A DNA stretch of 64,000 nt from an uncultured Anaerolineae bacterium (GTDB lineage: Bacteria > Chloroflexota > Anaerolineae > Aggregatilineales > UBA3940). The position numbers and the translations under genes are program-made. Positions 1,409 to 54,549 of the stretch are shown here, one piece after another; positions within the stretch are counted from its first letter, which is position 1, and each line of letters starts with the position of its first letter. The DNA lies in contig CAZRXG010000001.1 of the NCBI GenBank assembly GCA_964603985.1, positions 170,363 through 234,362 on the forward strand, in the 5' to 3' direction. Below the pieces are notes generated by a model. That model was not told where the DNA came from, ran no database searches, and worked only from the letters and a program-made list of their open reading frames with translations.

Positions 1409-4400
1409 ATGAACAACACACACTTGCCAAAGGAGAACCCCGCACACACCACGCAGTCACGCGTAGTTGGTGCCGTCATGGTGGTCGGCGGCGGCATCGC
1501 CGGGATGCAGGCTGCGCTGGACCTGGCCGATCAGGGCTTCAAGGTCTATCTGGTCGAGAAGCAGTCAGCCATCGGTGGGCATATGGCGCAGCTTGACAAG
1601 ACCTTTCCCACCAACGACTGTGCCATGTGCAGCATCAGCCCGAAGCTGGTGGACACCGGACGCCACCCCAACATCGAGATCCTGACCGGTACTGACGTTC
1701 TTGATGTTGAGGGGAAGAGCGGGGACTTCACCGTGACGCTGCGCCGGAGGCCGCGTTACATCGACGCGACCAAGTGCGTCGGCTGCGGTGACTGCGCTGA
1801 GGTGTGTCCGGTTTCGCTGCCCGACCCGTACGAAGAAGGGTTAAAAGACCGCCGGGCAGTTTATCGGCTGTACGCCCAGGCCGTTCCCACCGCCTACGCC
1901 ATCGAGAAGCTGGGCACCGCCCCCTGCCGGGGTGCCTGCCCCGCCGGACAGCGCGCGCAGGGCTACATTGCGCTGATCGCACAGGGACGCTACAGGGAAG
2001 CGCTGCGCGTCATCACCGAGGACAACCCCTTCCCCAGCGTTTGTGGGCGCACGTGCCACCACCCCTGCGAGGGACACTGCACGCGTGCCCTGGTCGATGA
2101 GCCGGTGAGCATCATGTCGCTCAAGCGCTTCGTGGTGGATTTTGCCCTGGCCTACGGGCGCGAGCCGGTCGAGCCTGCCCCGCGCACACAGCCCGAGTGG
2201 GTTGCCATCGTCGGCGCGGGGCCTGCCGGTCTGACTGCTGCCCACGACCTGGCGAAGATGGGATACGGCGTGACCGTCTACGAGGCGCTGCCGGTGGCTG
2301 GTGGTATGATGCGGGTCGGGATTCCGGCTCACCGGCTGCCCAAGGGCGTGCTTCAGCAGGACATCGATGACATTCTGGCCCTGGGCGTGATGCTCAAGAC
2401 CAACTCCCCGGTTAAAGATCCCACCGAGCTGCTTGAGCAGGGCTACGACGCGGTCTGCCTGGCGACCGGGATCTCGTCCCGCGACCACTCGCTGGGAATT
2501 GAAGGCGAGGACGCCGAAGGGGTGCTCTCGGCGGCTACCTTCCTGCGTAAGATCAACCTGGGAGAGCCGGTCACGGTCGGCGAGCGTGTGGCCGTGGTGG
2601 GCGGTGGAGTCACTGCCTTGGACGCGGCCTCGGTCGCCCGGCGGCTGGGCGCCACCGAGGTTTACGTGGCGCTCGACCGCCCGCGCGGTGAGCTGCCTGC
2701 CTACGAGCGAGAGGTTGCGGCCATTGAGGCGGAGGGCATCCACCTGCACGAGCGCGTCACCGCCACACGCATCCTGACCGAGAACGGCAAGGTAGTCGGG
2801 GTGGAGCTCGCCCAGACGGGCAAGGGGATGACGGTGGACGAGCAAGGACGCCGCCGCCCCAAGATCGAGCCCGGCACCGAGTTCACGCTCGAAGTTGATA
2901 CTGTCATCGGCACCGTGGGCCAGTTCTCGGACCTGTGCTTCCTTGACCAGCGCTTCGACGACCTGGAAGTGGACAAGGACACACTGGCGAGCCAGGTCCC
3001 CGGCCTGTTCGTGGTCGGTGGCCGTAAGACCGGGGCGAGCTTTATTATCGAGGCCGTGGCGCTCGGCCACCGGGTGGCAACCTCCATGCACCGCTACCTG
3101 CGAGGCGAGCCGCTGGATCGGGCCGATCCCCCGGCCCCACCCGTTTTGAAGTTCACCCGCGAGGAGTTGCTGGAGCGGGTGCAGAGCGGCGAGATCAGCC
3201 CGCAGCCGCGCGCCGAACCGGCCCTGTTGCCCATGGAGGAGCGGGTGACCAGCTTCCGCGAGGTCGTGCTGGGCCTGACCGAGCGTCAGGCGCGGGCCGA
3301 GGCGCAGCGCTGCATCCAGTGCGGGATCTGTTCGGAGTGCCTGGCCTGCGTGTACGCCTGCGGCGCCGACGCCATCGACCACAGCATGGTGGCCCAGGAG
3401 GAGCAGGTCAACGTGGGGGCGATTATCCTTGCTCCCGGCTACCAGGTCTACCACGCCGAGCTTTCCGAGGAGTACGGCTACGGGCGCTACCCCAACGTGA
3501 TCACCGCGCTCCAGTTCGAGCGGCTGCTTTCCGCCTCCGGCCCGACGATGGGCCACATCCAGCGCCCGTCCGACGGGCAGACGCCGGAGCGGATCGCCTT
3601 CTTGCAGTGCGTTGGCTCGCGCGATCAGAGCCACGACTACTGCTCGGCGGTGTGCTGCATGTACGCCACCAAAGAGGCCCTTATGGCCAAGGAGCACCAC
3701 CCCGACCTGGACATTCACGTCTTCATGATGGACATGCGTGCCTTTTCTAAGGGCTACTGGGGCTACTTTGAGACCGCGCGCGACCGCTACGGCGTGCAGT
3801 ACACCCGCTGTCGGCTCAGCGACGTGAAGGAGGACCCGCACACCCATAACCTGACTGTGCACTACCAGGACGAGGATGGAACGACCCACGACGAGACCTT
3901 TGGCATGGTTGTGCTGTCGGTCGGCATGGAGATTTCGGAGTCGGTGCGCGAGTTGGGGCGGCGGCTGGGTGTCGAGCTGGATGAGTACGGCTTCTGCCAC
4001 ACGGTACAGTTCAACCCGCTGGAAACCAGCCGCCCCGGCCTCTACGCCGTCGGGCCGTTCCGCGAGCCGAAGGACATCCCCGAGTCGGTTATCGAGGCCA
4101 GCGGGGCGGCGGCAGCGGCTGCCACGCGGCTCGGCTCGTCACGCTTCACGCTGACCACGACCCCTGAGTTCCCACCTGAGCGGGACATCAGCGGTGAGGA
4201 ACCGCGCATCGGTGTGTTCGTCTGCCACTGCGGTTCGAACATCGGCGGCTACCTCGACGTACCCTCCGTCGCCGGGTATGCGGCAACGCTGCCGGGCGTC
4301 GTCCACGCCGAGGATAACCTGTACTCCTGCTCGCAGGACAGTATTCGCCACATCGCCGAGCAGATCGAGGAGCACAATCTCAACCGGGTGGTGGTCGCCA

Positions 4401-5926
4401 GTTGCACGCCGATCACACACCAGCCGCTCTTCCGGGACTGCCTGCGGAGTGCCGGGCTGAACCCTTACCTGTTCGAGATGGCTAACATCCGCAACCAGTG
4501 CTCGTGGGTGCACTCGCATGACCAGGACATCGCCACGGACAAGGCCGAAGACCTGGTGCGGATGGCCGTCGCGCGCGCGGCGCTGCTTGAGCCGCAGCAG
4601 ACCTTCGAAGTGCCCATCCAGCATGCCGCGCTGGTGGTCGGTGGGGGGGCTGCCGGGATGACTGCCGCGCTCTCACTGGCCGGGCAGGGCTTCCCGGTTC
4701 ACCTGGTCGAGCGCGAGGCCGAACTGGGTGGCAATCTGCGTCACGTGTACAGTGCCATCGACGGCAAAGACCCGCAGCGCGTCCTGCGCCAACTCGTCGA
4801 GCAGGTCGGAGACGACCCTTTGATCACCGTTCACCTGGAGAGCGAGGTAGTCGCGTCGAGCGGCTTCATGGGCAACTTCACCAGCACGATTCGGCGTGCG
4901 GATGGGGGCCAGGCTGACATCCAACACGGGGTGATCATCCTGGCTACCGGCGCACAGGAGTACCGGGGGCCGGAGTACGGCTACGGCTCCGATCTGCGTA
5001 TCGTGACGCAGCAGGAATTTGAGGCCAGGATTGCAGAAGACGAAGATTTGCCCGCCTCGGTGGTGATGATCCAGTGCATCGGCCCTGCCGAGCATTTCTG
5101 CAGCCGCATCTGCTGCACGGTGGCGCTCAAGAACGCGCTCACACTGAAAAAGAAGAACCCGGACGCGCAGGTCGTGATCCTGTACAGGGACATCCGCACC
5201 TACGGCTTCAAGGAGCGGCTCTACACCGAAGCGCGCGAAAAGGGTGTGATCTTCGTGCGCTACGACGACGATCACCGACCGGTGGTCGAGGCGGACGGCG
5301 ATTTGAGAGTTCAGGCCTGGGACCCGGCCCTCAAGCAGCCACTTGTCCTGGAGCCGGACCTGCTGGTGCTGAGCATGCCGGTCGTGCCGCGCGACGACGT
5401 GCGCAAGCTGGCCGGGCTGTTCAAGGCCAACATCGACAACGACGGTTTCTTCCTGGAGGCGCACGTCAAGCTCCGCCCGGTCGACTTCGCCTCAGATGGG
5501 GTGTTCATGGCCGGGATGGCGCACTACCCCAAACTGCTGGACGAGGCTATGATTCAGGCGCAGGCCGCCGCCTCGCGGGCCGCACGGGTGCTCAGCCGCG
5601 AGACGTTGAAAGCGGGCGGGCGCGTGGCCGTAGTCGATCCGCTGATGTGCACCGGTTGTTTGACCTGCGTGCGGGTCTGTCCCTTCGGCGTGCCGCAGAT
5701 CAGGCGCGACCTGACCGGCGTGGGCGGTGTGGAGGGAGCGGCCTACATCGAGACCGCCGTGTGCCAGGGCTGTGGATCGTGCGTTGCCGAGTGCCCGGCG
5801 GGGGCGATCCAATTGATGCACTACACCGACGCGCAGTTGGCGGCCAAGGTTGGAGCACTCCTCGATCCGTCGATGGATTACGTGTCGCTTGGTCGGGCTG
5901 TGGCATCGGAGGGGAAGAAACGGTGA
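1409..5926 (+). CDS. hdrA: HdrL-type large heterodisulfide reductase subunit A: two HdrA FAD modules, an inserted GltD/NfnB-like NAD(P)H oxidoreductase module and ferredoxin motifs
   Basis: VVGGGIAG and DKTFPTNDCAMC (HdrA); CRGACP/CGRTCHHPCEGHC, VGAGPAG, VVGGGVTA (GltD-like); RIGVFVCHCGSNIG, second VVGGGAAG, C-terminal CxxCxxCxxxCP pairs. Confidence 0.9.
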   Translation: MNNTHLPKENPAHTTQSRVVGAVMVVGGGIAGMQAALDLADQGFKVYLVEKQSAIGGHMAQLDKTFPTNDCAMCSISPKLVDTGRHPNIEILTGTDVLDVEGKSGDFTVTLRRRPRYIDATKCVGCGDCAEVCPVSLPDPYEEGLKDRRAVYRLYAQAVPTAYAIEKLGTAPCRGACPAGQRAQGYIALIAQGRYREALRVITEDNPFPSVCGRTCHHPCEGHCTRALVDEPVSIMSLKRFVVDFALAYGREPVEPAPRTQPEWVAIVGAGPAGLTAAHDLAKMGYGVTVYEALPVAGGMMRVGIPAHRLPKGVLQQDIDDILALGVMLKTNSPVKDPTELLEQGYDAVCLATGISSRDHSLGIEGEDAEGVLSAATFLRKINLGEPVTVGERVAVVGGGVTALDAASVARRLGATEVYVALDRPRGELPAYEREVAAIEAEGIHLHERVTATRILTENGKVVGVELAQTGKGMTVDEQGRRRPKIEPGTEFTLEVDTVIGTVGQFSDLCFLDQRFDDLEVDKDTLASQVPGLFVVGGRKTGASFIIEAVALGHRVATSMHRYLRGEPLDRADPPAPPVLKFTREELLERVQSGEISPQPRAEPALLPMEERVTSFREVVLGLTERQARAEAQRCIQCGICSECLACVYACGADAIDHSMVAQEEQVNVGAIILAPGYQVYHAELSEEYGYGRYPNVITALQFERLLSASGPTMGHIQRPSDGQTPERIAFLQCVGSRDQSHDYCSAVCCMYATKEALMAKEHHPDLDIHVFMMDMRAFSKGYWGYFETARDRYGVQYTRCRLSDVKEDPHTHNLTVHYQDEDGTTHDETFGMVVLSVGMEISESVRELGRRLGVELDEYGFCHTVQFNPLETSRPGLYAVGPFREPKDIPESVIEASGAAAAAATRLGSSRFTLTTTPEFPPERDISGEEPRIGVFVCHCGSNIGGYLDVPSVAGYAATLPGVVHAEDNLYSCSQDSIRHIAEQIEEHNLNRVVVASCTPITHQPLFRDCLRSAGLNPYLFEMANIRNQCSWVHSHDQDIATDKAEDLVRMAVARAALLEPQQTFEVPIQHAALVVGGGAAGMTAALSLAGQGFPVHLVEREAELGGNLRHVYSAIDGKDPQRVLRQLVEQVGDDPLITVHLESEVVASSGFMGNFTSTIRRADGGQADIQHGVIILATGAQEYRGPEYGYGSDLRIVTQQEFEARIAEDEDLPASVVMIQCIGPAEHFCSRICCTVALKNALTLKKKNPDAQVVILYRDIRTYGFKERLYTEAREKGVIFVRYDDDHRPVVEADGDLRVQAWDPALKQPLVLEPDLLVLSMPVVPRDDVRKLAGLFKANIDNDGFFLEAHVKLRPVDFASDGVFMAGMAHYPKLLDEAMIQAQAAASRAARVLSRETLKAGGRVAVVDPLMCTGCLTCVRVCPFGVPQIRRDLTGVGGVEGAAYIETAVCQGCGSCVAECPAGAIQLMHYTDAQLAAKVGALLDPSMDYVSLGRAVASEGKKR

Positions 5927-6378
5927 CAGAAAATACCCGGCTGTATATTATCTCGTACTGCTGCGAGCATTGCGCCTACGCCGCAGCCGACCTCGCGGGC
6001 GGGCTGAGGATGCAGTATCCTCCGGAGGTCAGGATCGTCCTGCTGCCCTGCACGGGCAGGATCGACGTGCTGACGGTGCTGCGCGCCTTTGAGGATGGCG
6101 CCGACGGCGTGATGGTGGCCGGTTGACTGCCTGGGGACTGCCATTACCTGGAAGGTAATGCTAACGCCAGGCGCCGCGTAGAGCGCGTTAGGGAACTGCT
6201 GGCCCAGATTGGCCTGGAGCCAGAGCGGATGCAAATGTTCAATATGTCGGCTGCGATGGCGGGCGAATTTGTCGCCAGAGCAGAGGAGATGACCCAGCGG
6301 ATTGCGGCCCTGGGGCCGAGTCCTTTACACGTCACATCGATCACTTCATCGAAGATAAACACGGAGAGTAAAACATGA
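5923..6378 (+). CDS. mvhD: MvhD-family [2Fe-2S] protein, selenocysteine-containing (in-frame TGA at 6124-6126, codon 68)
   Basis: GTG overlaps hdrL stop; YCCEHCAY..PCTGRID..GADGVMVAG-TGA-LPGDCHYLEGN..GLEPERM; frame continues to a TGA overlapping the metV ATG; SECIS-like hairpin follows the TGA. Confidence 0.9.
6129..6172 (+). promoter_or_regulatory. bacterial SECIS element (candidate)
   Basis: Lower stem GCCTGG/CCAGGC, upper stem CATTACC/GGTAATG, apical loop TGGAA, starting 3 nt after the in-frame TGA. Confidence 0.8.
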
Positions 6379-7058
6379 TTGTTGCCGAACAAAAACCACT
6401 CGAGGAGATCAAGAAGCTCGTCGGAGACGCCGAAAAGGTGCTGGTTGTAGGATGCGGCACCTGTGTGACGGTCTGCTTCGCTGGCGGTTCGCGCGAGGCG
6501 GCCATTGTGGCGGCATCGCTGCGCATGGCCTCCAAGCTCGACGGCGGCGAGAAAGACGTCACCGACGTAACCGTCCAGCGCCAGTGCGAGTGGGAATACC
6601 TGGACGAGATCAAGGACGCAGTCGGCGAGGCCGACCTGGTGCTGTCGCTGGGCTGCGGGATCGGCGTGCAGGCGATAGCCGAGCACTTCCCCGACACCTG
6701 GGTCGTGCCCGGCCTGAACACCACCTTCCTGGGTTTGCCTGAGGAGCAGGGCATCTGGTCCGAACGCTGCGCGGCCTGCGGCGACTGCATCCTGGGGCTG
6801 ACGGGGGGCATCTGCCCCATCGCGCGTTGTTCCAAGTCGCTGCTTAACGGGCCGTGTGGTGGATCGGAGAACGGGCACTGTGAGATCGACCCCGACGTCC
6901 CCTGTGCCTGGCAGCTGATCTACGACCGGCTGAGCAGTATGGATAAGCTCGACGTTCTGCTGGAAATTCAACCCCCGAAAAACTGGAGCACCTCGCGTGA
7001 TGGTGGGCCGCGCAAGATCGTGCGCGAGGACCTGCGCCTGGTGTCGGAAGAGGAGTAG
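6375..7058 (+). CDS. metV: methylenetetrahydrofolate reductase Fe-S/Zn subunit MetV
   Basis: MIVAEQKPLEEI, GCGTCV, GCGIG, CAACGDC, GGICP, LLNGPCGG motifs; adjacent to metF. Confidence 0.9.
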   Translation: MIVAEQKPLEEIKKLVGDAEKVLVVGCGTCVTVCFAGGSREAAIVAASLRMASKLDGGEKDVTDVTVQRQCEWEYLDEIKDAVGEADLVLSLGCGIGVQAIAEHFPDTWVVPGLNTTFLGLPEEQGIWSERCAACGDCILGLTGGICPIARCSKSLLNGPCGGSENGHCEIDPDVPCAWQLIYDRLSSMDKLDVLLEIQPPKNWSTSRDGGPRKIVREDLRLVSEEE

Positions 7059-7061
7059 GCC

Positions 7062-8078
7062 ATGACCGCTGAAGCTAGCAGCAACGGGCATCTGGTTGGC
7101 TCAAACCTGGAGCGTGTGCTTCGGGCCGGGCACTTCGCCGTCACAGCCGAGCTTGGCCCTCCCCAGAGCGCCGACGGCGACGAGATACGCCACAAGGCCA
7201 CTTTGCTGCGGGGCAACTGCGACGCGGTGAACATCACCGATAACCAGACGGCAATCGTCCGCATGTCCAGCATTGCCGCCGGAGCCATCGTCGTGCAGGA
7301 GGGGCTGGAGCCAATCGTCCAGATGACCTGTCGCGACCGCAACCGCCTGGCGATCCAGAGCGACCTGCTGGGCGCGTACGCGCTGGGAATGCGCAACCTG
7401 CTGTGTCTCACCGGCGACCACCAGACCTTTGGCAACCACCCCACGTCCAGGAACGTGTTTGACATCGACTCGCTGCAACTGTTGCAGATGGTGACCGCCA
7501 TGCGCGACGACTGCGTCTTCCAGTGCGGTGACGCGTTCAAAGGGCAGGAGCCACGCTTCTTCATCGGCGCGGCGGCTGCGCCCTTTGCCGACCCGATTGA
7601 CTTCCGTCCCTACCGCCTGGCAAAGAAGGTCAAGGCCGGAGCGAACTTCATCCAGACCCAACTCGTCTACGACATCGAGGCGTTTGAGGAATACATGGCA
7701 AAGGTACGCGAGATGGGGCTGCACGAGCAACTTTACATCCTGGCCGGGGTTGGGCCGCTGAAAAGTCCGGGCATGGCCCGCTATATGAAGAACAGCGTCC
7801 CCGGCATCCTCGTCAAAGACGAGTACATCGAGCGGATGAAGGCTGCCGGTGAACCCTGGGCGGGGAAATCCAAGGACGAGATGACCCCGGAGGATAAAAA
7901 AGCTCGATCCGAGGCCTGGAAGCAGGAGGGCATCAACATCTGCGTCGAACTGATCCAGCGGCTGCGTGAAGTAGAAGGTGTGGCCGGTGTGCATATCATG
8001 GCGATTGAGTGGGAAGAGGCCGTCGAACCGATTGCCTCCGGTGCCGGTCTGCTGCCACGCCCCGAAGTATCCCTCTAG
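7062..8078 (+). CDS. metF: methylenetetrahydrofolate reductase catalytic subunit MetF
   Basis: VTAELGPP, NITDNQ, QMTCRDRNRLAIQ, LTGDH, FIQTQ, GVHIMA motifs. Confidence 0.93.
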   Translation: MTAEASSNGHLVGSNLERVLRAGHFAVTAELGPPQSADGDEIRHKATLLRGNCDAVNITDNQTAIVRMSSIAAGAIVVQEGLEPIVQMTCRDRNRLAIQSDLLGAYALGMRNLLCLTGDHQTFGNHPTSRNVFDIDSLQLLQMVTAMRDDCVFQCGDAFKGQEPRFFIGAAAAPFADPIDFRPYRLAKKVKAGANFIQTQLVYDIEAFEEYMAKVREMGLHEQLYILAGVGPLKSPGMARYMKNSVPGILVKDEYIERMKAAGEPWAGKSKDEMTPEDKKARSEAWKQEGINICVELIQRLREVEGVAGVHIMAIEWEEAVEPIASGAGLLPRPEVSL

Positions 8079-8093
8079 TCCTGGAGATGGCTC

Positions 8094-9518
8094 ATGGAAG
8101 AAAAACAACAACCAACCACCGAACCAATGACCATCGACTCTGAGCTGGCGCAGCGCGTCATGGACGAGCTGGGGCAGAACGTCTATCTGTGCTACCAGTG
8201 CGTCAAGTGCACCAGCGGCTGCCCGGTATCGGAGTTCTTCGATTGGCAGCCCAACCAGATCATGCGTGCCGTGCAGTTGGGCCAGGAGGACATCGCCCTG
8301 CGCTCCAAGACGCCGTGGCTGTGCGCCTCATGCCAGACGTGTACGACGCGCTGCCCGCAGGGGTTGGACATCGCGGCGATCATGGAGTTCCTGACCCGCG
8401 AGGCGCTTAAACGGGACATCAAACCCCAGGTGCCCGAAACAGACTACTTCAACAAGGCCTCCATGCGCGAGGTGAAACTGTGGGGGCGGGCCTATGAGCT
8501 GGGCCTGATGATGGAGATGAAGCTCCGCACGCTCGACATCATGGGTGACATGGACCTGGGTGTCAGGATGCTTCTGAAGAACAAGCTGGCTCTTCTGCCC
8601 AGCCCGACGCGCCCGCCGGACAAGGTAAAGCCTATGCCCGGCGCAGCGCGTGCCATCGCCTACTATCCGGGCTGCTCGCTGCACTCCACGGCACCGGAGT
8701 TTGACATCTCAACGCGGGCCGTGTGCGAGGCGCTCGACATGACCCTGATCGAGCCGAAGGGCTGGGTGTGTTGCGGCAGTTCGGCTGCCCATCGCGCCGA
8801 CCCGGCTGAAGCGCTACGCTTGCCGATGGTAAACCTGTCCATCATCGAGCAGAGCGGATTCAACGAAGTGACGATGCCGTGCGCGATGTGCTTCAGCCGC
8901 CATAAGTTTGCCCAGCACGAGATCAGGCACGACGAGCAGCACAAGGCTGAGGTAGAGGAAGCATTGGACTACAATTACCAGGACACGGTGCACGTCAGCA
9001 CGCTGATCGAGGCAATCCACGATCACGTTGGAACAGAGGCCGTCAGCGAGAAAATCGAGAAGCCGCTCGACGGGCTGCGTGTGGCCTGTTACTATGGCTG
9101 CCTGCTGACGCGCCCGCCCGAAGTCACCGGGGTGGAACATCCCGAAAACCCGACCGACATGGACGAGCTGATGGTGGCACTGGGGGCAGAGGTCGTCGAT
9201 TGGTCCTACAAGACCAACTGCTGTGGGGCGGGTCTGTCGCTGACGCGCCCTGAGATCGTGCTTGAACTGAGCAGCGCCATCATCGAGCATGCCCGCGAAG
9301 CCGGTGCCGAAGTGATCGCAGTGGCCTGCCCGATGTGCCACGCCAACCTGGATGCCCGCCAGTTCCAGATGGGCCTGGAAGCGCCCGTGCCGGTGCTGTA
9401 CTTTACACAGTTGATGGCGCTGGCCCTGGGGCTGCCGGAGAAGGCTGCCGCACTGAGCAGGAATTTGGTCGACCCGCGCCCAATCCTGAAGAGCAAGGGC
9501 TTTCTCGGCCAGCGCTGA
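8094..9518 (+). CDS. hdrCB: fused heterodisulfide reductase subunits C and B (HdrC-HdrB)
   Basis: N-terminal CYQCVKCTSGCP and CASCQTCTTRCP (HdrC); two CCG domains YYPGC..CCGSS..PCAMC and YYGC..CCGAG..ACPMC (HdrB). Confidence 0.88.
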   Translation: MEEKQQPTTEPMTIDSELAQRVMDELGQNVYLCYQCVKCTSGCPVSEFFDWQPNQIMRAVQLGQEDIALRSKTPWLCASCQTCTTRCPQGLDIAAIMEFLTREALKRDIKPQVPETDYFNKASMREVKLWGRAYELGLMMEMKLRTLDIMGDMDLGVRMLLKNKLALLPSPTRPPDKVKPMPGAARAIAYYPGCSLHSTAPEFDISTRAVCEALDMTLIEPKGWVCCGSSAAHRADPAEALRLPMVNLSIIEQSGFNEVTMPCAMCFSRHKFAQHEIRHDEQHKAEVEEALDYNYQDTVHVSTLIEAIHDHVGTEAVSEKIEKPLDGLRVACYYGCLLTRPPEVTGVEHPENPTDMDELMVALGAEVVDWSYKTNCCGAGLSLTRPEIVLELSSAIIEHAREAGAEVIAVACPMCHANLDARQFQMGLEAPVPVLYFTQLMALALGLPEKAAALSRNLVDPRPILKSKGFLGQR

Positions 9519-9603
9519 GGCGGCTGGCCGACCAGTAACGCAAGCAACCAGCCGGAGGAGACACAGAAGCTAAACTCTCTGTAAAGATTCTCCCGCCACA
9601 GGT

Positions 9604-10158
9604 GTGCTGCAGGGGGTGACCGTGGTCCTTGTAGATATGCTGGACGAAGTTCTGGAAGCGGCGTGGCGGACAATTTGCAGCACGTATAACATAACCGCCG
9701 GGTCTCCGACCGTACAGGTTCTGTTCGAGGGGGCCGACTTAGATGCGTCGACCCAGGCGGCGGAGACGGTCATCGTCAACATGCTGTCGGAGGCCATAGA
9801 GAAGATCGACCGCTTTTCCCCCTGGTACAAGATGCCGGCCAGGGCATTTGGCCTGATCGCGGTGCGCGACAGCACTACCAATTGTCTGCGTTGGGTTCTC
9901 GCACCTGAAGCTGTGCAGCGCTGGCAGCAGTTGTTGGGAGATCTTACAGTTGCCATTCAGAGAAACAGCGGGCTACTCCAGGCCACCAAGCTGGTCGACG
10001 AACTGGTGAGGAAGGCCCCCGCTGACGACCCGTGCGTGATGGCCTGTTGCGGCTGTGTCCCCAGACGGACTATCCTGGTCAAACAGTCGGTTCTGCTCGG
10101 CACCGAGGTCGTGTGCGGCGCGTGCAAACAGCCCTTCCGCCCGGTAGAGTGCGAGTAG
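9604..10158 (+). CDS. hypothetical protein with C-terminal Cys-rich, possible zinc-binding motif
   Basis: 184-aa ORF filling an intergenic space; CCGC-x(19)-CGAC near the C-terminus; start uncertain. Confidence 0.6.
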   Translation: MLQGVTVVLVDMLDEVLEAAWRTICSTYNITAGSPTVQVLFEGADLDASTQAAETVIVNMLSEAIEKIDRFSPWYKMPARAFGLIAVRDSTTNCLRWVLAPEAVQRWQQLLGDLTVAIQRNSGLLQATKLVDELVRKAPADDPCVMACCGCVPRRTILVKQSVLLGTEVVCGACKQPFRPVECE

Positions 10159-11051: not shown

Positions 11052-12221
11052 TCAGGATGCCCCCACCGGTATGCTAATGGTGAGGCGCGTTCCCTGGTGG
11101 GGGGCCGACTCGATCCGCACCTGGCCATCGTGGATCTGCGCACGCTGCTGGATGTTGCGCAGCCCCAAACCGGTGTGATCAGACAGATTGTTCAGGTCAA
11201 AGCCCTGCCCGTCGTCTGTAATGACGATCTGGAAAACATTGCCGTTTTGCCGGGCTGCGACGGTGATCTGGTGAGCGTTCGCATGGCGGATCGCATTGCT
11301 GATGGCTTCGTTGGCGATCTGGCAGATCGCCTCAAAGGTTGCCGGCACGAAAGGGGGTTCCTGATCCGGTGCCTCGATGCTGACGGTCAGCGTTTCGGGG
11401 ATGTGCAGGCGGGCCACCAGATCGGCCAGCGACTCGTAGATTGACTCGCGTCGGTGGTTTCTCCGTTGCAAGTTGTGAATATAGCCGCGAATGTCCTCGA
11501 TCACTCCGTTAAGCTCGTCGATGAGTAGCTGGGGTTCGTCCGGCTGGACATGTCCCGACATACGAAGAAGTTCCAGGTGCATGCCGATGGCGTAGAGCGA
11601 CTGTATCACGCCGTCGTGCAGCTCCATGCCGATCCGCTCGCGTTCCTCCAGCAGGGCTACCCGGCTCTGCTGCTCGCTTAACTGGGCACCGGCAATCGCC
11701 AGCGCAGCATAACCGGCCATGGCTTCAATGAGCCATTGATCCTGCTCGCTGAAAGGCTCGCCGTCTTCGCGGTCACACAGGTAAAGCAGGCCAAAGAGCT
11801 GCTGACCAACCTGGATCGGAACACCCAGCAGGCTGGTCATGGGGGGATGTCCCGCGCAAAAGCCAACAGAACGGGGGTGATCGGCCATCCGTGCCAGGCG
11901 AAGCGTTTTTCTCTTCTCCTGGATCACCCTCAAGAGTCCCTCCCCCCTTGGCAGGTGCGCTACTTCCTCAATCTCTTGCTGAGTCATTCCGGAAACTTTG
12001 AAGTACTTCAACCCGCCGCGCTCGTCAGGAACGCTCAGCGCCGCATAACGTGCGTTGACAAGCTCCCTTGAAGCGTGGGCGATCCGCTCCAATACCTGCT
12101 CCAGCGTCCTGGCTTCGGCGGCGTGCATCACCGTCGAGGCTATGCTGTTGAGAGTGTTCAGGACGTCGCGCACGCTCCCTGAGGAATGGTGCTTGTTGTT
12201 GTTTGCCATATTGTATATCAC
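11052..12221 (-). CDS. DosS/DevS-like heme-binding GAF sensor histidine kinase (HisKA_3)
   Basis: GAF with HLPRGEG..SVGFCAGHPPMTSLLGVP; H-box IGMELHDGVIQ; DDGQGF, GLGLRNI; start may be ATG of MANN. Confidence 0.85.
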   Translation of the reverse strand: MIYNMANNNKHHSSGSVRDVLNTLNSIASTVMHAAEARTLEQVLERIAHASRELVNARYAALSVPDERGGLKYFKVSGMTQQEIEEVAHLPRGEGLLRVIQEKRKTLRLARMADHPRSVGFCAGHPPMTSLLGVPIQVGQQLFGLLYLCDREDGEPFSEQDQWLIEAMAGYAALAIAGAQLSEQQSRVALLEERERIGMELHDGVIQSLYAIGMHLELLRMSGHVQPDEPQLLIDELNGVIEDIRGYIHNLQRRNHRRESIYESLADLVARLHIPETLTVSIEAPDQEPPFVPATFEAICQIANEAISNAIRHANAHQITVAARQNGNVFQIVITDDGQGFDLNNLSDHTGLGLRNIQQRAQIHDGQVRIESAPHQGTRLTISIPVGAS

Positions 12222-12431
12222 ATTTACGAAGAGAATATGTTAAAATCGACACTATATGTCTATACTATAAATGTACCACATTCTTTGGCTTAAGTGCAGG
12301 GCTGAACGGCCCCGACCACATTGAAGCCCCAGGAATCACCGGGAACAAACCTCCGACTCAAGTCGGAACCGCCAGCCTCAGAGGTTGCCTGTGACCGGGA
12401 CGGTGCCGCCGGGGCACAGTGCTGGGTCAGT

Positions 12432-12445
12432 CTTGAGTACTCAAG
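12432..12445. promoter_or_regulatory. perfect 14-bp palindrome CTTGAGTACTCAAG, candidate operator
   Basis: Perfect dyad about 20 nt upstream of the response regulator ATG in a divergent intergenic region. Confidence 0.4.
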
Positions 12446-12464
12446 CAGAAAAGCCGGACAGGTT

Positions 12465-16303: not shown

Positions 16304-16900
16304 ATGGCGGAGTCAGCAACCGCAACAAAGGATGAGCTACTTGAAATACGCTGGCACGGGCGTGGAGGGCAGGGTGTGGTGACGGCAGGTAAGCTGCTGG
16401 CAGACGCTGCCCTGGACGCGGGCCTGTACTTCCAGGCTTTTCCCGACTACGGGCCGGAGCGCATGGGTGCGCCCATCCGGGCGTTTACACGCATGAGCAA
16501 ATCCCCTATCCACGTACACTCACAGATCGTCGAGCCAAACGTGCTTTTGGTCCTCGACCCAACCGTGATGAGTGCGCTCGATGTCACGGAAGGCCTGGTC
16601 GAGGATGGCGTGGTTATCGTGAATACGTCCGATTCGCCGCAGCAGATCCGCGAGGAGTTAGGGCTGAAGAGCGGTCGAGTTTTCACGGTGGATGCCAGCG
16701 CCATTGCCATCAAACACCTTGGACGTGAGATCACCAACACCCCGATGCTGGGTGCGCTGGCGGCGGCAACGGGCATCTTTGAACTGGAAGAATTAGCAGG
16801 GCAGATTCGCCACAAGTTCGAGCGCAAGTTCGGCGAGCAGATCGTTCTGGCGAACATTGATGCCCTGAACGAAGCGGCAGAGCAGCTACGGGAGGGATAG
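16304..16900 (+). CDS. porC: pyruvate:ferredoxin oxidoreductase gamma subunit
   Basis: EIRWHGRGGQG, FPDYGPERMGAP, NTPMLGA. Confidence 0.92.
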   Translation: MAESATATKDELLEIRWHGRGGQGVVTAGKLLADAALDAGLYFQAFPDYGPERMGAPIRAFTRMSKSPIHVHSQIVEPNVLLVLDPTVMSALDVTEGLVEDGVVIVNTSDSPQQIREELGLKSGRVFTVDASAIAIKHLGREITNTPMLGALAAATGIFELEELAGQIRHKFERKFGEQIVLANIDALNEAAEQLREG

Positions 16901-16904
16901 CATA

Positions 16905-17204
16905 ATGGCAAAAGAGAAAAACTGGCAGGAGCTCCCTATCGGTGGGTTGATCGTAGACGCGGGCAACGCCATCGAGTACAACACCGGCAGCTGGCGAGCC
17001 TTCCGGCCCATCGTCGACATGGAGAAGTGCACCCACTGTCTGTTCTGCTGGCTCTACTGCCCGGATGTCGCCATCATTGTCAAAGATGGTCAGATGATGG
17101 GGATTGACTATGAGCACTGCAAGGGCTGCGCCGTCTGCGCCGAAGTTTGCCCGCCCAAGTGCATCACCATGCACCCTGAGTACGAGTTCGCGGAGGAAGG
17201 GTAG
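16905..17204 (+). CDS. porD: pyruvate:ferredoxin oxidoreductase delta subunit
   Basis: TGSWR..P, CTHCLFCWLYCP, CKGCAVCAEVCP. Confidence 0.92.
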   Translation: MAKEKNWQELPIGGLIVDAGNAIEYNTGSWRAFRPIVDMEKCTHCLFCWLYCPDVAIIVKDGQMMGIDYEHCKGCAVCAEVCPPKCITMHPEYEFAEEG

Positions 17205-17207
17205 AAA

Positions 17208-18443
17208 ATGAGCAAGGTCAAGACGACTGTTAAGGCCCTGGATGGCAACGCGGCCATCGCCGAGGCAATGCGCCAGATCAACCCGGATGTGGTTGCCGCC
17301 TACCCGATCACTCCTTCGACGGCCATCCCGCAGACCTTCTCGCAGTTCGTGGCCGATGGGCTGGTCGACACCGAGTTCGTCCCGGTGGAGAGCGAGCACA
17401 GCGCAATGAGCGCCTGCATCGGCGCAGCGGCAGCCGGTGGGCGCGTCATGACGGCGACGGCCAGCGCCGGGCTGGCGCTGATGTGGGAGGTTGTCTACGT
17501 GGCGGCCAGCACGCGCCTGCCGATTGTGATGGCGATCGTCAACCGCGCGCTCAGCGCCCCGATCAACATCCACTGCGACCACTCGGACTCGATGGGCGCA
17601 CGTGACTCAGGCTGGATTCAACTCTACTCGGAGAACGCACAGGAAGCCTACGAGAACACCTTCCAGGCGGTGCGCATCGCCGAGCACATGGACGTGCGCC
17701 TGCCGGTGATGGTCATGCAGGACGGCTTCATCACCAGCCACGGTGTGGAGCGCGTCGAAGTGTACGACGACGCGGCCATACGGGACTTCCTGGGCGAGCT
17801 CCAGGCAATCTACCCCCTGCTGGATGTCGACAACCCTGTTACTTACGGCCCCCTCGACTTCTACGACTACTACTACGAGCACAAGCGCCAGCAGGTCGAG
17901 GCGATGCGCAACGCGCCGGACGTGATCAGGGCAGTCGGCAAGGAGTTCGGCAAGAAGTTCGGGCGTGAGTATGGCATGTTCGAGACCTACGCGCTGGACG
18001 ATGCCGACGTTGCCATCGTGGTGCTTTCTTCGACCGCCGGGACGGCCCGCGTGACGGTTGACAGGCTGCGGGCAGAAGGCCTCAAGGTCGGGCTGCTCAA
18101 GCCGCGCGTTTTCCGTCCTTTCCCCGCCGACGAGTTGGTCGACGCGCTGCGGAACCTGAAGGCAATCGCGGTCATGGACCGCGCGATCTCCTTCGGCGCG
18201 TTGGATAACTGCGGCCCCCTGTGGCTGGAGATAGTCAGCGCGGCTTATACGCGCGGGCTGCAAATCCCAATCGTGGACTACATCTTCGGGCTGGGTGGCC
18301 GTGACACCACCATAGCGGAGGTCGAAAACATCTACCGCCATATTCTGCACGTGGCCGAAACCGGCCAGGTCGATCAGAACGTCCACTACGTCGGCGTGCG
18401 TGGCGAAGAGCCTTTGCTCGCGGGCAACGGGCACAAGGGTTAG
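17208..18443 (+). CDS. porA: pyruvate:ferredoxin oxidoreductase alpha subunit
   Basis: DGNAAIA, AYPITP, VESEHSA, TATASAGL, NRALSAPINIHCDHSD. Confidence 0.93.
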   Translation: MSKVKTTVKALDGNAAIAEAMRQINPDVVAAYPITPSTAIPQTFSQFVADGLVDTEFVPVESEHSAMSACIGAAAAGGRVMTATASAGLALMWEVVYVAASTRLPIVMAIVNRALSAPINIHCDHSDSMGARDSGWIQLYSENAQEAYENTFQAVRIAEHMDVRLPVMVMQDGFITSHGVERVEVYDDAAIRDFLGELQAIYPLLDVDNPVTYGPLDFYDYYYEHKRQQVEAMRNAPDVIRAVGKEFGKKFGREYGMFETYALDDADVAIVVLSSTAGTARVTVDRLRAEGLKVGLLKPRVFRPFPADELVDALRNLKAIAVMDRAISFGALDNCGPLWLEIVSAAYTRGLQIPIVDYIFGLGGRDTTIAEVENIYRHILHVAETGQVDQNVHYVGVRGEEPLLAGNGHKG

Positions 18444-18461
18444 CCGGGGAGGAAAAACGAA

Positions 18462-19409
18462 ATGGCAATTGAAATCAATACCCGCTTTACGCTGAAAGAC
18501 ATCGCAGCAAAGGAAGACCGGCTCAGCCCTGGGCACCGCATGTGCGCGGGCTGCGGCGCGCCAATCATTGTGCGCCAGATCCTCAATGCGATTGAAGAAC
18601 CGGTCGTCGTCGCCAACGCGACAGGCTGCCTGGAAGTCGCCACGACGATCTATCCCTACACCGCCTGGCGTGTGCCCTGGATCCACAGCGCCTTCGAGAA
18701 CGCCGCCGCGACAATCGCTGGCGTCGAGGCGATGTACCGCTCGCTGGTACGCCAGGGCAAGATCGAGGATAGGAACATCAAGTTCCTGGCCTTTGGTGGT
18801 GACGGCGGCACGTACGACATTGGCCTCCAGGCCCTGAGCGGGGCGCTGGAGCGCGGTCACAATTTCCTGTACATCTGCTACGATAACCAGGGCTACATGA
18901 ACACCGGCATCCAGCGCTCAAGCGCGACGCCCCACGGCGCGGCGACCACCACGTCGCCCGCCGGGACGGTGATCCCCGGCAAGCCCCAGTTCCGCAAGGA
19001 CCTGACGGCTATCGTCGCCGCTCACGATATCCCCTATGCAGCACAGGCGTCACTGTTCCGCTGGAAGGACCTGATGACCAAGGTCCGCAAGGCGGTCGCT
19101 GCCAATGGCCCGTCCTTCCTCAACGTCTACGCGCCCTGCAATCGCGGCTGGCGCATCGACACCAGCGACACCATCGAAAACTCGAAGCTGGCCGTCGATA
19201 GCTGCTTCTGGCCGCTGTTTGAGGTCGAGTACGGGGAGTGGAAGGTCAACTACAAACCGCGCGAAAAGCTGCCGGTCCGGGAATGGGTTCAGGCGGAGGG
19301 ACGCTTCAAGCACCTCTTCACGCCCGGCAACGAGCACGTCATCGACGAGCTGCAGGCCGAGGTCGACCGGCGTTGGGAGATGCTGCTCAAGCGGGCCGGT
19401 GAGCTGTAG
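18462..19409 (+). CDS. porB: pyruvate:ferredoxin oxidoreductase beta subunit
   Basis: GHRMCAGC, ATGCLEV, FENAAA, GGDGGTYDIG, DNQGYMNTGIQRS, APCNRGW. Confidence 0.93.
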   Translation: MAIEINTRFTLKDIAAKEDRLSPGHRMCAGCGAPIIVRQILNAIEEPVVVANATGCLEVATTIYPYTAWRVPWIHSAFENAAATIAGVEAMYRSLVRQGKIEDRNIKFLAFGGDGGTYDIGLQALSGALERGHNFLYICYDNQGYMNTGIQRSSATPHGAATTTSPAGTVIPGKPQFRKDLTAIVAAHDIPYAAQASLFRWKDLMTKVRKAVAANGPSFLNVYAPCNRGWRIDTSDTIENSKLAVDSCFWPLFEVEYGEWKVNYKPREKLPVREWVQAEGRFKHLFTPGNEHVIDELQAEVDRRWEMLLKRAGEL

Positions 19410-23465: not shown

Positions 23466-24119
23466 GTGCACGAAGAACTATTCGAGGCCATGGCCCGGAG
23501 TGTCATCGACGGTGAAGAAGAGATCGCCGTGGAGTTAGCACAGCGGGCCGTCACCGGGGACATCGATCCCCTGGAAGCCATCAACCGGGGGTTTGTCATC
23601 GGCGTGAACGAGGTCGGCGAGCGGTTTGGCTGCGGTGAGGTGTTCCTGCCCGACCTGGTGATGGCGGGCAAGGCGATGAAGGCCGCCATCGCCTTGCTGG
23701 AGCCGGAGATGACCCGCCGGGGCACCGAGCGCCAGGTGTTGGGCCGGGTGGTGCTGGGCACCGTCGAGGGCGACATCCACGAGATCGGTAAGATGCTGGT
23801 CGGCATCATGCTGACGGCGAACGGTTTTGAGGTCCACGACCTGGGTGTGGACGTGCCGGTCGCGAAGTTCGTCGAGAAGGCGCGCGAGGTGAGCGCCGAC
23901 ATCGTCGGCCTGAGCGCCCTGCTGACCACGACGATGCCCCAGCAGAAGCGCGTCATTGAGCTGCTGGAGGACGGCGGTCTGCGCCATAGCGTCAAGGTGA
24001 TGGTGGGCGGCTCGCCCGTCACCCGGAGTTGGGCCGACGAGATCGGCGCGGACGGCTACAGCGAGGACGCCATCGGCGCGGTGAAGGTCGCCAAAGATCT
24101 GGTCGAGGCGTCGTCATGA
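23466..24119 (+). CDS. cobalamin-binding corrinoid protein (MttC/MtbC-like)
   Basis: B12 cap (GEVFLPDL), EGDIHEIGK (DxHxxG), DLGVDVP, LSALLTTTM, VGGSPV; GTG start after AAGGAG. Confidence 0.92.
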   Translation: MHEELFEAMARSVIDGEEEIAVELAQRAVTGDIDPLEAINRGFVIGVNEVGERFGCGEVFLPDLVMAGKAMKAAIALLEPEMTRRGTERQVLGRVVLGTVEGDIHEIGKMLVGIMLTANGFEVHDLGVDVPVAKFVEKAREVSADIVGLSALLTTTMPQQKRVIELLEDGGLRHSVKVMVGGSPVTRSWADEIGADGYSEDAIGAVKVAKDLVEASS

Positions 24120-25570
24120 GCCGCGAGATTACCTCTATCAGCAGCCCCCGGTTGAGCCTCAACATTCTCAGCCGGGAGGACGTGGAGCGCATCCACACCG
24201 CCACACTGGATGTCATCGAGAAGACCGGCGTGCGCTTTCCCTCGCAGCGTGCGCTCGACATCTGGGAGGCTCACGGCGCGACCGTCGACCGGGACACCAT
24301 GATCGTCCGGGTTCCCGGTCAGGTGATCGAAGAAGCGCTCAAGCACGCGCCGCCGACCTACATGCTGGCCGCCCGCGACCCGGCGCAGGATCTGCCGCTG
24401 GATGGCAATCACGTCTTCGTAGGCACCGACGGCTGCGGCGTGGAGGTGCTCGACCTGTACACCGCCGAGCGCCGCCGATCATGCTGGCAGGACGTGGCCG
24501 ACATCGCACGCGTCGCCGATGCTGTGGAAGAGATCGCCTTCCACTGGGTGGCCGTCTCGGCGCAGGATCGCCCGCCCGAATCGCGCGGCCTGCACGAATT
24601 GCTCGCCATCTGGCAAAACTCGACCAAGCACGCCCAGACGGAAAGCATTTACGCCACCGAGGCGGAAGCGCGGGCCGGTGTCGAGATGGCTGCCACCATT
24701 GCCGGGGGGCACGACGCTCTGCGCCAGCGCCCGGTGCTCTCGGTCATGCAGTGCACGGCACCGCCGCTGGGGCACGACGGCGGCAGCCTCAACGCCGCCC
24801 TGATCGCCGCCGAGGCGGGTCTGCCAGTCGGGTTCATGACGATGGCCTCCTGCGCCTCGACCGGCCCGACGACGATGGCCGGTACGCTGGTCGTCGGCAA
24901 CGCGGAGGTGATCAGCGCGCTGGCGCTGATCCAGCTTGCCTATCCCGGTGTGCCGGTCTTTTACGCCGCCGCCCAGACGGCGATGGATCTCCGCACGGGC
25001 GCTTACACCGGCGGCGGCCCGGAGGACTTCCTGTTCGGCGCGGCCACCAACGTGCTGTCCGACTTCTACGACGTGCCGCTCTCGATGGGGTCGTTTGCCA
25101 CCGGTGCAAAGGAACCGGACTGGCAGGCGGGCATCGAGAACAGCCTCTCGACCTTTATGGCGTCGGTCGTCATGTCGGATATGCTGCTGGGCGTGGGGCT
25201 GCTGCACGGCAGTCGCATCTGGTCGTTTGAGCAGATGCTGATGGACTGTGAGATCTTCAGCATCGTGCACAAGATGATGGCCGGTATCCCGGTCAGCGAC
25301 GAGACGCTGGCCCTCGACGTGATCGACGCGGTGGGGCCGGGTGGTCACTTTCTGGCACAAAAGCACACCCGCAAACACATGCACGACCTGTGGCAGCACA
25401 CGCTGATGGACCGCCGCCCCTACAGCGTGTGGGAGGAGAAGCGCGATGGGGCCCGCGAGTGGGCGCGCGAAAAGGCGCAGCAGATTCTGGAGACGCACCA
25501 GCCTGAGACGCTCGACCCGAAGCTGGCCGCCGAATTGGAGCGTATTATCGCCTCGGTTGAAGAGGCGTGA
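24116..25570 (+). CDS. mttB: trimethylamine methyltransferase family protein (MttB-like, no pyrrolysine)
   Basis: ATG overlaps corrinoid gene stop; ERIHTATLDVIEKTGV, GTLVVGNAE, PDWQAG, SFEQ..DCEI, VGPGGHFL; no in-frame TAG. Confidence 0.9.
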   Translation: MSREITSISSPRLSLNILSREDVERIHTATLDVIEKTGVRFPSQRALDIWEAHGATVDRDTMIVRVPGQVIEEALKHAPPTYMLAARDPAQDLPLDGNHVFVGTDGCGVEVLDLYTAERRRSCWQDVADIARVADAVEEIAFHWVAVSAQDRPPESRGLHELLAIWQNSTKHAQTESIYATEAEARAGVEMAATIAGGHDALRQRPVLSVMQCTAPPLGHDGGSLNAALIAAEAGLPVGFMTMASCASTGPTTMAGTLVVGNAEVISALALIQLAYPGVPVFYAAAQTAMDLRTGAYTGGGPEDFLFGAATNVLSDFYDVPLSMGSFATGAKEPDWQAGIENSLSTFMASVVMSDMLLGVGLLHGSRIWSFEQMLMDCEIFSIVHKMMAGIPVSDETLALDVIDAVGPGGHFLAQKHTRKHMHDLWQHTLMDRRPYSVWEEKRDGAREWAREKAQQILETHQPETLDPKLAAELERIIASVEEA

Positions 25571-28883: not shown

Positions 28884-28923
28884 AATACACAACCTTGCTT
28901 GGCGGAAGGATCAAGGCAGCGCC

Positions 28924-29415
28924 CTAAGAGGCGGACAGCCGGAAGTCGGGCTCGACCTGGTCGGCGCGATCTACGACGAGCTGCCCGTCGCTGCCCCAGG
29001 AGAGCCGCACAAACCGCAGTGGGAGGGTGGCCGGACCGTGCATCACAGTGCCATCCTGGGCAAACCGGCTGCTGTGGCAGGGGCAGTAGTAGGTGCCGTC
29101 GGGCTGGAGGTTGACCGTGCAGCCGAGGTGCGTGCAGATCCCGTCAACGGCGTAGAAGCCCGCTCCATCCTTATGGAGCCACACCTGTGCCTCCTCGACG
29201 TAGACCGGTAGTTCGGGCAGGTTCGCGGGCGCTCCCAGCGTGAAACGCGTGACCTGTGTCGCAGGCGGCTCGAAGCGTATGTATCTGAGCAGTTCGGCCA
29301 CGCTCGCCGCAAGCGGAACGGCCCAGGCAAAGTTCAGTATCCCTTTCAGCGCTTCGCGGCGTGTCAGCGATTTCGCGGTTGATTTGACACTCGATGCGAT
29401 CGATTTTACAGACAT
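28924..29415 (-). CDS. Rieske [2Fe-2S] protein of a Rieske/cytochrome b complex
   Basis: Tat-like TRREALK plus TM; CTHLGC and CPCHSS boxes; GPA..PL. Confidence 0.92.
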   Translation of the reverse strand: MSVKSIASSVKSTAKSLTRREALKGILNFAWAVPLAASVAELLRYIRFEPPATQVTRFTLGAPANLPELPVYVEEAQVWLHKDGAGFYAVDGICTHLGCTVNLQPDGTYYCPCHSSRFAQDGTVMHGPATLPLRFVRLSWGSDGQLVVDRADQVEPDFRLSAS

Positions 29416-29419
29416 TCAG

Positions 29420-54407: not shown

Positions 54408-54445
54408 GTGCGACGTGTCGATGCCGGTTCTTACGACCTGGTATG

Positions 54446-54465: not shown

Positions 54466-54471
54466 CAAGTG

Positions 54472-54544: not shown

Positions 54545-54549
54545 TCAAG

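Follow-up and report, generated by a model that had tools for sequence, protein, structure and literature searches.

A window of 64,000 nucleotides from an uncultured Anaerolineae bacterium (assembly GCA_964603985.1, contig CAZRXG010000001.1, positions 170,363 to 234,362) carries an operon of five genes, hdrL-mvhD-metV-metF-hdrCB. The second gene, mvhD, encodes a protein of the FlpD/MvhD family, and its frame contains a TGA codon followed closely by a stem-loop. Comparison of this gene with its relatives suggests, with a probability of about 0.9, that mvhD is an intact selenoprotein gene in which the UGA is read as selenocysteine (Sec), the stem-loop being the putative selenocysteine insertion sequence (SECIS). 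The features of the locus are collected in Table 1, in coordinates of the window unless a contig is named.

Table 1. Features of the mvhD locus and of related selA-bearing contigs
Feature	Position	Strand	Description
hdrL	1409..5926	+	1505 residues, HdrA fused to a GltD-like NAD(P)-binding domain; upstream of mvhD
Shine-Dalgarno-like GGAGG	5908..5912	+	10 nt before the mvhD GTG; read from the sequence
mvhD	5923..6378	+	151 codons, GTG start, Sec68; predicted product of 150 residues
Putative UGA selenocysteine codon 68	6124..6126	+	motif VMVAG-U-LPGDCH; Cys in homologues, TGA in at least 119 species
Whole hairpin as folded in the window	6128..6173	+	includes a lineage-specific lower stem, 6128-6134 with 6167-6173
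Conserved putative SECIS core	6143..6159	+	6-bp stem 6143-6148/6154-6159, apical loop UGGAA 6149-6153
metV (MTHFR small subunit)	6375..7058	+	PF12225; coupled to mvhD by ATGA
metF (methylenetetrahydrofolate reductase, MTHFR)	7062..8078	+	Pfam MTHFR PF02219
hdrCB fusion	8094..9518	+	HdrC-type 2x[4Fe-4S] and HdrB CCG; Pfam Fer4_17/Fer4_8 and CCG
selA-operon neighbourhoods	L249:5075-6487 and 12005-12460 (Sec-type mvhD); L248:16019-17443 (Cys-type)		selA about 5.5 kb off

The mvhD frame opens with a GTG at 5923-5925 that overlaps the stop codon of hdrL (shared GTGA), a start position whose equivalent is used by mvhD orthologues. It closes with a TGA at 6376-6378, which overlaps the metV ATG at 6375-6377. 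Translation gives VTENT...GADGVMVAG-TGA-LPGDCHYLEGN..., with a single internal stop and no frameshift, and in the predicted product residue 68 stands in the context VMVAG-U-LPGDCHYLEGNANAR. With Cys placed at the TGA, the product matches Pfam FlpD/MvhD (PF02662) from position 1 to 123 of 123 over residues 9-131 (E=1.1e-48; 164.8 bits against a cut-off of 22.3), and the domain is therefore continuous through the TGA. MvhD and VhuD chains in the PDB match with E values of 3.5e-39 to 3e-32 (7bkb_F, 3.5e-39; 5odc_D, 6.7e-34). No NCBIfam naming model scores above its cut-off, so mvhD stays hidden in annotations. The best of these models, the Methanococcales VhuD equivalog NF045873, reaches 155.6 against a required 215, and the window protein lies outside it, with one Sec site and not two. 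The list of open reading frames (ORFs) splits the region into 5074..6126 and 6229..6378, and on two contigs nearly identical to the window the gene callers give a 67-residue FlpD fragment only. The original prediction, made from the letters of the sequence, had described an MvhD frame with TGA at the column of a family Cys, resuming without frameshift, ending on the metV ATG and broken by the ORF track, and each of these points agrees with the translation and the homologues. For annotation, mvhD needs to be merged into one coding sequence (CDS) of 151 codons with Sec at codon 68.

At the TGA column, all 31 of the closest full-length homologues (54-72% identity) have Cys; several of them are source-named as Chloroflexi/Chloroflexota or Anaerolineae metagenome-assembled genomes (MAGs). 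Five Cys/Sec positions (C14, C17, C43, C/U68 and C73) are invariant in the alignment with these homologues, and the VhuD of Methanococcus maripaludis (9sfi chain K) has C or X at the same five. In that chain, X (Sec) stands both at the CxxU motif, which corresponds to Cys17 of the window protein, and at VAG-X, which corresponds to codon 68. Aligned with Cys-type and Sec-type MvhD alike, the window codon thus falls in a column of Cys or Sec, and the Sec position is already known from a solved structure.

One alternative would be a Cys-type mvhD in which the TGA arose by nonsense mutation or through a fault of assembly or sequencing. A TGA is one base from TGC or TGT, and the best-scoring database proteins are all Cys-type; truncated Sec-type products would rank below the best 120. 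However, two short contigs, from two other JGI samples, encode a MetV protein identical to that of the window. These contigs are 98.6% and 99.0% identical to the window in DNA, both keep the TGA, and four of the five differences within their mvhD fall at third codon positions. The presence of the TGA in contigs of other samples therefore excludes both an assembly error and a nonsense mutation private to the window. The same codon, moreover, recurs in at least 119 other species and is always accompanied by a frozen hairpin specific to TGA-type genes (see below), and an origin in mutation or error is accordingly held to be extremely improbable.

The Sec-type genes were sought in the GTDB collection, with one genome per species, using a DNA pattern for D-[GA]-x-x-x-[AV]-G-TGA-[LM]-x-G-[DNE]-C-H. 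Only the protein motif and the TGA were fixed in this pattern, and everything 3' of the His codon was free. The scan found TGA at the MvhD column in at least 119 species genomes. Among the matches listed, 99 are labelled as Chloroflexota (Anaerolineae, Anaerolineales, Promineifilaceae, Ardenticatenales, Aggregatilineales, Caldilineaceae and others), and the remainder are mostly Desulfobacterota/Thermodesulfobacteriota, with single bins of Acidimicrobiia, Acidobacteriota, Leptospirales and Zixibacteria. The Desulfobacterota members with U at this exact column include L060, L070, L077 and L092. The frame stays open after the TGA in every listed match (at least 54 codons, the shortest ending at a locus edge), and the C-terminal LGPNPL motif is reached wherever the locus extends far enough. 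Measured over 115 orthologues against the window, mean amino acid identity is 60% for the 66 codons that follow the TGA, with 43% of differing codons synonymous, and 69% for the 59 codons that precede it, with 54% synonymous. The correction of the CDS applies equally to these species genomes, at least 119 in number, whose mvhD has likely been split or truncated or, as in three database entries, rendered with Trp. A single Chloroflexota contig holds two Sec-type copies of mvhD in a span of 8 kb (L035:884-943 and 7861-7920).

The three entries with Trp (P0034, P0046 and P0047, VMVAG-W-LPGDCH) are what might speak for a decoding of UGA as Trp, Gly or Cys through an alternative code or near-cognate read-through. 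TGA is, however, the ordinary stop of 24 of the 39 genes in the window, including hdrL and mvhD itself, and the genetic code is therefore the standard one. The Trp most likely reflects TGA translated under code 4 by the gene caller, in which case the three proteins would be further hidden Sec-MvhD genes. As the column also requires the chemistry of Cys or Sec, this kind of decoding has a negligible probability.

Downstream of the UGA, the window RNA can form a hairpin with the arms GCCTGG (6129-6134) and CCAGGC (6167-6172), CATTACC (6142-6148) and GGTAATG (6154-6160), and the loop TGGAA (6149-6153). The 62 nt after the TGA fold with a minimum free energy of -26 kcal/mol (z = -2.6), and 2 of 200 shuffled sequences fold as well. 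Its codons are unusual for the locus: across 38 genes of the window, His is encoded by CAT in 19% of cases, Glu by GAA in 26%, Gly by GGT in 17% and Asn by AAT in 17%. With the codon usage of the window, the string CAT-TAC-CTG-GAA-GGT-AAT would arise with a joint probability of about 7e-4. The arms, the loop and the bias towards codons ending in A or T were already part of the original prediction and are present as it described them. It had also proposed a SECIS of two stems, and here the orthologues separate the two: the upper stem-loop is conserved, and the lower stem is not.

To describe the conservation, positions were counted from the T of the TGA, so that the window coordinate is 6123 plus the position. 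In all 122 distinct Sec-type sequences, the third codon positions 21 (His, U), 24 (Tyr/Phe, C), 27 (Leu, G) and 36 (Asn, U) are invariant. The third position of the Gly codon, 33, is U in 110 and A in 12, matching position 23, which is A in 110 and U in 12. Other synonymous sites are saturated (position 18, C 68/T 54; position 12, A 23/C 67/G 13/T 19). A Cys-type control was assembled from metagenome contigs with the same pattern carrying TGY, giving 115 distinct sequences. In this control, the sites are near 50:50 (position 21, C 60/T 55; position 36, C 58/T 56), and position 33 takes all four bases. Of seven stem pairs, 2-6 can form in the Cys-type controls, against 6-7 in every Sec-type gene. 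Even the amino acids of the loop differ, with Leu in 95% and Glu/Asp in 97% of Sec-type genes against 33% Leu and 23% Glu in Cys-type genes. Within the loop U-G-G-A-A, G27 is found in 122/122 and G28 in 120/122 Sec-type sequences.

In the ungapped alignment of 120 Sec-type sequences, the six pairs from 20-36 to 25-31 are formed in every sequence, with pair 23-33 being A-U in 108 and U-A in 12. The covariation score of the upper stem exceeds that of 500 of 500 shuffles and of all slid controls, and RNAalifold returns the upper stem only. A seventh pair, C19-G37 (window C6142-G6160), is formed in 52 of the 120. The 18-nt core reads CAUUACCUGGAAGGUAAU in 92 of the aligned genes, and the remainder differ only in loop 26-30 and at pair 23/33; so sharply defined a core could serve as a search key. 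In the window, the 17-nt core motif is found a single time, where 0.05 occurrences would be expected by chance; in the fetched loci, each Sec-type mvhD has one copy, and the motif is largely absent from Cys-type genes. On two contigs fetched for their Cys-type mvhD, the core also occurs at a second site (L170:6021-6037 and L176:4066-4082), which is possibly a second, Sec-type mvhD copy.

The lower stem GCCUGG/CCAGGC was rejected as a conserved part of the SECIS. For positions 6-11/44-49, 52.8% of the cells are paired across orthologues, and the three central pairs form in 22-30% of sequences. A shorter lower helix, 10-13/42-45, is 80% paired, but its pairs also form in 43-97% of the Cys-type controls, and most of it consists of Gly, Asp, Asn and Ala codons. 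With the upper stem formed in 120/120 and the lower in 52.8%, the conserved element is therefore the upper stem-loop 6143-6159.

The stem begins 16 nt after the UGA, the loop UGGAA lies 22 nt after it, and G occupies loop positions 2 and 3. In the 2005 model of Zhang and Gladyshev, the SECIS of E. coli fdhF type is said to be a hairpin within the ORF, 3' of the UGA, of which only the upper stem-loop is conserved. The window element resembles it in having its apical loop about 22 nt from the UGA and a G in the first two loop positions, but differs in sequence, in showing no evident bulged U and in carrying GG and not GU in the loop.

A stable hairpin could also serve pausing, attenuation or mRNA stability in a truly split gene, made of a 67-residue N-terminal fragment and a separate C-terminal part. 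Gene callers do report FlpD fragments of 67 and 66 residues in relatives. Yet no conserved start codon or ribosome-binding site (RBS) follows directly after the TGA, and the first in-frame ATG, GTG or TTG in the window is at 6229, so that the second product would lose the invariant LPGDCH cluster motif. The hairpin, too, has the hallmarks of a bacterial SECIS, occurring with TGA and being largely absent in Cys-type genes, and the archaeal homologue has Sec exactly at this column. A split gene is for these reasons considered highly improbable.

Several observations nevertheless weigh against reading the UGA as Sec, or reduce the weight of the evidence for it. The A-U/U-A change at pair 23-33 is probably one compensatory event and not twelve, because all 12 sequences with U-A belong to a Desulfobacterota-type clade; since GGU to GGA is synonymous, the change at Gly makes sense only at the RNA level and is still telling. 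No Rfam family matches the hairpin, and a permissive scan of 6090-6210 gave a chance sRNA hit only. To our knowledge there is no Rfam model for bacterial SECIS elements, which makes this null uninformative. No second TGA-interrupted gene was found in the window, where the candidates were adjacent same-frame genes and antisense artefacts only. Lastly, the 64-kb window contains no selA, selB, selD or tRNA-Sec by Pfam on about 45 ORFs, ARAGORN and Rfam; its tRNAs are one tRNA-Met and one tRNA-Gly (ARAGORN, and Rfam at the gathering threshold). The remaining doubt is whether this genome still has Sec machinery.

That doubt can be put as an explanation of its own, in which the gene is of selenoprotein ancestry but the machinery is lost or absent, the UGA acts as a stop and mvhD is a pseudogene in the making. 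The lack of sel genes and tRNA-Sec in the window fits such a loss, as do the Sec-to-Cys conversions and losses common in the family (PMC1794560; the tree described below has 29 or more state changes). However, the SECIS core is perfect, the downstream frame, RBS and metV coupling are intact, and strains diverged by 1-1.4% keep the TGA with mostly third-position changes. No second mvhD lies in the window as a replacement, and sel genes would be expected elsewhere in a multi-Mb genome. Loss of the machinery is thus regarded as very unlikely.

Related contigs bear on the same question. A search of 1.8 Mb of fetched loci with tblastn (Chloroflexota SelA) and ARAGORN found selA only in the loci fetched for selA, and no tRNA-Sec. 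P0001, the Cys-type orthologue nearest to the window protein (70% identity), is encoded in an identical operon with selA 5.5 kb away. A SelA homologue, P0124, 84% identical to the SelA beside P0001, led to contig FWWM01011562.1 (L249), in which selA and the same operon are 5.5 kb apart and the operon DNA is 73% identical to window 3320-10137. On this contig the gene caller broke FlpD into pieces of 67 and 66 residues. The DNA has TGA at codon 68 followed by CTGCCAGGCGATTGTCATTACCTGGAGGGTAAT, an intact SECIS core, so that selA lies on one contig with a Sec-type orthologue. In the window, synteny with the relatives ends after a 184-residue gene at 9604-10158, and selA is absent. SelA homologues source-named from Anaerolineae and Chloroflexi MAGs are numerous, and a published study reports SelB from single-cell genomes of Anaerolineales as well as from Anaerolinea thermophila (PMC4959059). 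The central claim of the original prediction, an MvhD that encodes selenocysteine, is upheld by the TGA in at least 119 species, the conserved frame, the TGA-specific hairpin, the selA of L249 and the Sec of archaeal VhuD.

If the UGA is decoded as proposed, a ribosome reaching 6124-6126 would have the stem-loop 6143-6159 in front of it, 16 nt downstream in the same frame. The hairpin, as a bacterial SECIS, would tether SelB-GTP-Sec-tRNA(Sec), and Sec would be delivered in place of release factor 2. The protein of 150 residues would then be completed, its stop being coupled to the start of metV. The need for this RNA structure would freeze the codons of His74-Tyr75-Leu76-Glu77-Gly78-Asn79, and would even fix the loop amino acids Leu-Glu. 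For this organism, SelB binding and actual Sec insertion are what we infer from the nucleotide sequence. The product would act as the adaptor subunit of a HdrL-MvhD-MetVF-HdrCB complex, a Moorella-type MTHFR presumed to be electron-bifurcating. This would place a selenoprotein in the core one-carbon (C1) metabolism of Anaerolineae-type Chloroflexota. The MTHFR would depend on selenium, as the original prediction supposed, only if no Cys paralogue substitutes for the Sec form; no Cys-type mvhD paralogue was found in the 64-kb window.

To understand what Sec68 might do in the protein, the five invariant Cys/Sec positions can be compared with homologous adaptors. A literature search on which cysteines ligate the [2Fe-2S] cluster of MvhD gave no hits. 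A 2026 preprint states that, in the MvhD of methanogens, one of the cysteines close to the cluster does not ligate it but takes part in a regulatory disulfide, and that the corresponding residue of BamF is Sec19, which lies in the N-terminal motif (bioRxiv 10.64898/2026.04.10.717634). With five invariant positions, four ligands needed and the equivalent of C17 a non-ligand, residue 68 is by elimination somewhat favoured as a ligand of the [2Fe-2S] cluster, the role that the original prediction had given it. Alternatively, U68-x4-C73 may form a selenenylsulfide redox pair.

Sec-containing MvhD is itself well established, as the original prediction had stated. In a 2006 survey, Sec-MvhD/FrhD was the third most frequent bacterial selenoprotein family, with 19 genes, one of them in Moorella thermoacetica (PMC1794560). 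Desulfobacterium autotrophicum HRM2 has four Sec-mvhD genes adjoining hdrA/hdrL genes (PMC2702500), and Syntrophobacter fumaroxidans has eight against the single gene of Moorella thermoacetica (PMC2702500, PMC1794560). The window gene shares with bacterial Sec-MvhD/FrhD (PF02662) a UGA in place of a conserved Cys, a SECIS inside the ORF and a position after hdrA/hdrL. It differs in its host, an Anaerolineae-like Chloroflexota, and in having Sec in AG-U-LPGDC while the CxxC site stays Cys. A 2026 review gives the family motif as CxxU, at the N-terminal site, and confines the Sec forms to sulfate reducers and methanogens (PMC13188914); the occurrence of Sec-MvhD in many Anaerolineae contradicts that confinement. 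The gene described here is a member of a long-known family, whose genes annotation pipelines mostly overlook, and not of a new kind, and knowledge of Sec decoding is unchanged. As the family is already classical, the finding is less remarkable than the original prediction implied, and its value lies mainly in annotation and ecology.

The solved archaeal homologue offers a further comparison. VhuD of M. maripaludis (9sfi/9t1s chain K) belongs to the same fold family (E=3.4e-35) and reads VAG-X-KPNEC where the window protein reads VAG-U-LPGDC. It has a second Sec at CxxU, where the window protein has Cys17. Archaeal SECIS elements lie in an untranslated region and are read by a different SelB, unlike the window element, which is in-frame and of bacterial type. 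VhuD is the [2Fe-2S] adaptor to HdrA (PMC13518236), its partner being a hydrogenase or a formate dehydrogenase, as against MetVF in the window. BamF, from the class II benzoyl-CoA reductase of Geobacter metallireducens, is a bacterial adaptor homologous to MvhD, with Sec near a [2Fe-2S] cluster in a bifurcating complex of HdrA type (bioRxiv 10.64898/2026.04.10.717634). Its Sec19 occupies a non-ligand position in the N-terminal motif, in contrast to the site of Sec in the window, and BamF is more than 100 residues longer.

Sec and Cys forms appear to have exchanged repeatedly. On a neighbour-joining tree of 227 core sequences they are interleaved, with at least 29 parsimony state changes, a rough estimate given the short alignment and the two differently sampled sets. 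The hairpin core is still found in the three closest Cys-type orthologues that were compared as DNA (CATTACCTGGAAGGTAAT, CATTACCTGGAGGGTAAT and CATTACTTGGAAGGTAAT). This fossil core, CATTACCTGGA(A/G)GGTAAT, occurs together with TGC at the column and within the same operon (L242:6001-6456, L244:5648-6091 and L246:3748-4167); one of the three has a C-to-T change that gives a G-U pair. A remnant SECIS is regarded as a signature of recent Sec-to-Cys conversion (PMC1794560), and its presence in the closest Cys-type orthologues is the pattern expected of such a conversion and points to one. The core could thus also be used as a marker of recent conversion. A broader reading joins these points: Sec68 would be a selenolate ligand of the [2Fe-2S] cluster, and Sec would be ancestral and prevalent in the HdrL-MvhD-MetVF-HdrCB complexes of Anaerolineae, with repeated conversion to Cys leaving fossil SECIS elements behind. 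This combined proposal is tentative, and we place it a little short of even odds. If it is true, the selenoproteome of these organisms would also be systematically under-annotated.

All six functions of the Moorella-type MTHFR are contiguous in the window (metF, metV, mvhD, hdrA as hdrL, and hdrB and hdrC fused). The gene set is that of the hexaheteromeric Moorella-type complex MetFV-HdrABC-MvhD; the window differs by an HdrA of HdrL type, with its GltD-like NAD(P)-binding insert, and by the HdrCB fusion. A literature search on a Sec form of MvhD in the Moorella complex, whose coverage did not extend to Mock et al. 2014, found nothing. HdrL matches Pfam Pyr_redox_2, Fer4_20 and Fer4, and NCBIfam HdrA2 (948 bits) together with NAD(P)-binding/GltD models; for HdrCB, the NCBIfam HdrB and HdrC models stay below cut-off. 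The order hdrL-mvhD-metV-metF-hdrCB is kept around Sec-type mvhD wherever the 8-kb locus is long enough, and metV directly follows Sec-type mvhD in most orthologous loci. In orthologues of HdrL, MetV, MetF and HdrCB, no recurrent stop is aligned to a Cys, and neither hdrL itself nor its orthologues have an in-frame TGA; MvhD would therefore be the sole selenoprotein of this type of complex.

Clusters of hdrABC-mvhD-metVF have been described in the marine Anaerolineae DscP3, An-B22 and SM23_63, with a fused HdrCB in DscP3 and Sec unmentioned (PMC5736913). The gene set, the order around metV-metF and the HdrC-HdrB fusion are as in the window. A Cys-type MvhD source-named SM23_63 (P0083) is among the homologues found. 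In two relatives, a second HdrA-FlpD pair lies just upstream of hdrL (L242:885-1406 and L244:464-982), and the paralogous MvhD of that pair reads VVA-C-PIGNCHH and is without SECIS-type codons. The window has no such pair directly upstream of hdrL, and a sensor-kinase gene (135-1343) is found there instead.

The rest of the 64-kb window holds ordinary housekeeping and regulatory genes. Two ORFs of 283 and 417 residues on the minus strand (16731-18860) stand out by an unusually low GC content at third codon positions, 0.53 and 0.65 compared with about 0.8 elsewhere. Neither matches a Pfam family; they may be of foreign origin, or not genes. At 54089-54561, also on the minus strand, ARAGORN calls a permuted 'tmRNA*' that overlaps tRNA-Met (54471-54544) and the end of a galK-like ORF. 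As Rfam gives only two tRNAs there, the call is probably a false positive. A full-length MttB-family methyltransferase of 513 residues (24029-25570, plus strand; PF06253) has no in-frame stop and is thus of the non-pyrrolysine type; it may feed methyl groups to the same C1/tetrahydrofolate pathway as the MTHFR. A split cytochrome b, a Rieske protein and a multihaem cytochrome c gene lie at 28113-31780, and in L244 and L245 a cytochrome b/Rieske set stands directly after the orthologous MTHFR operon.

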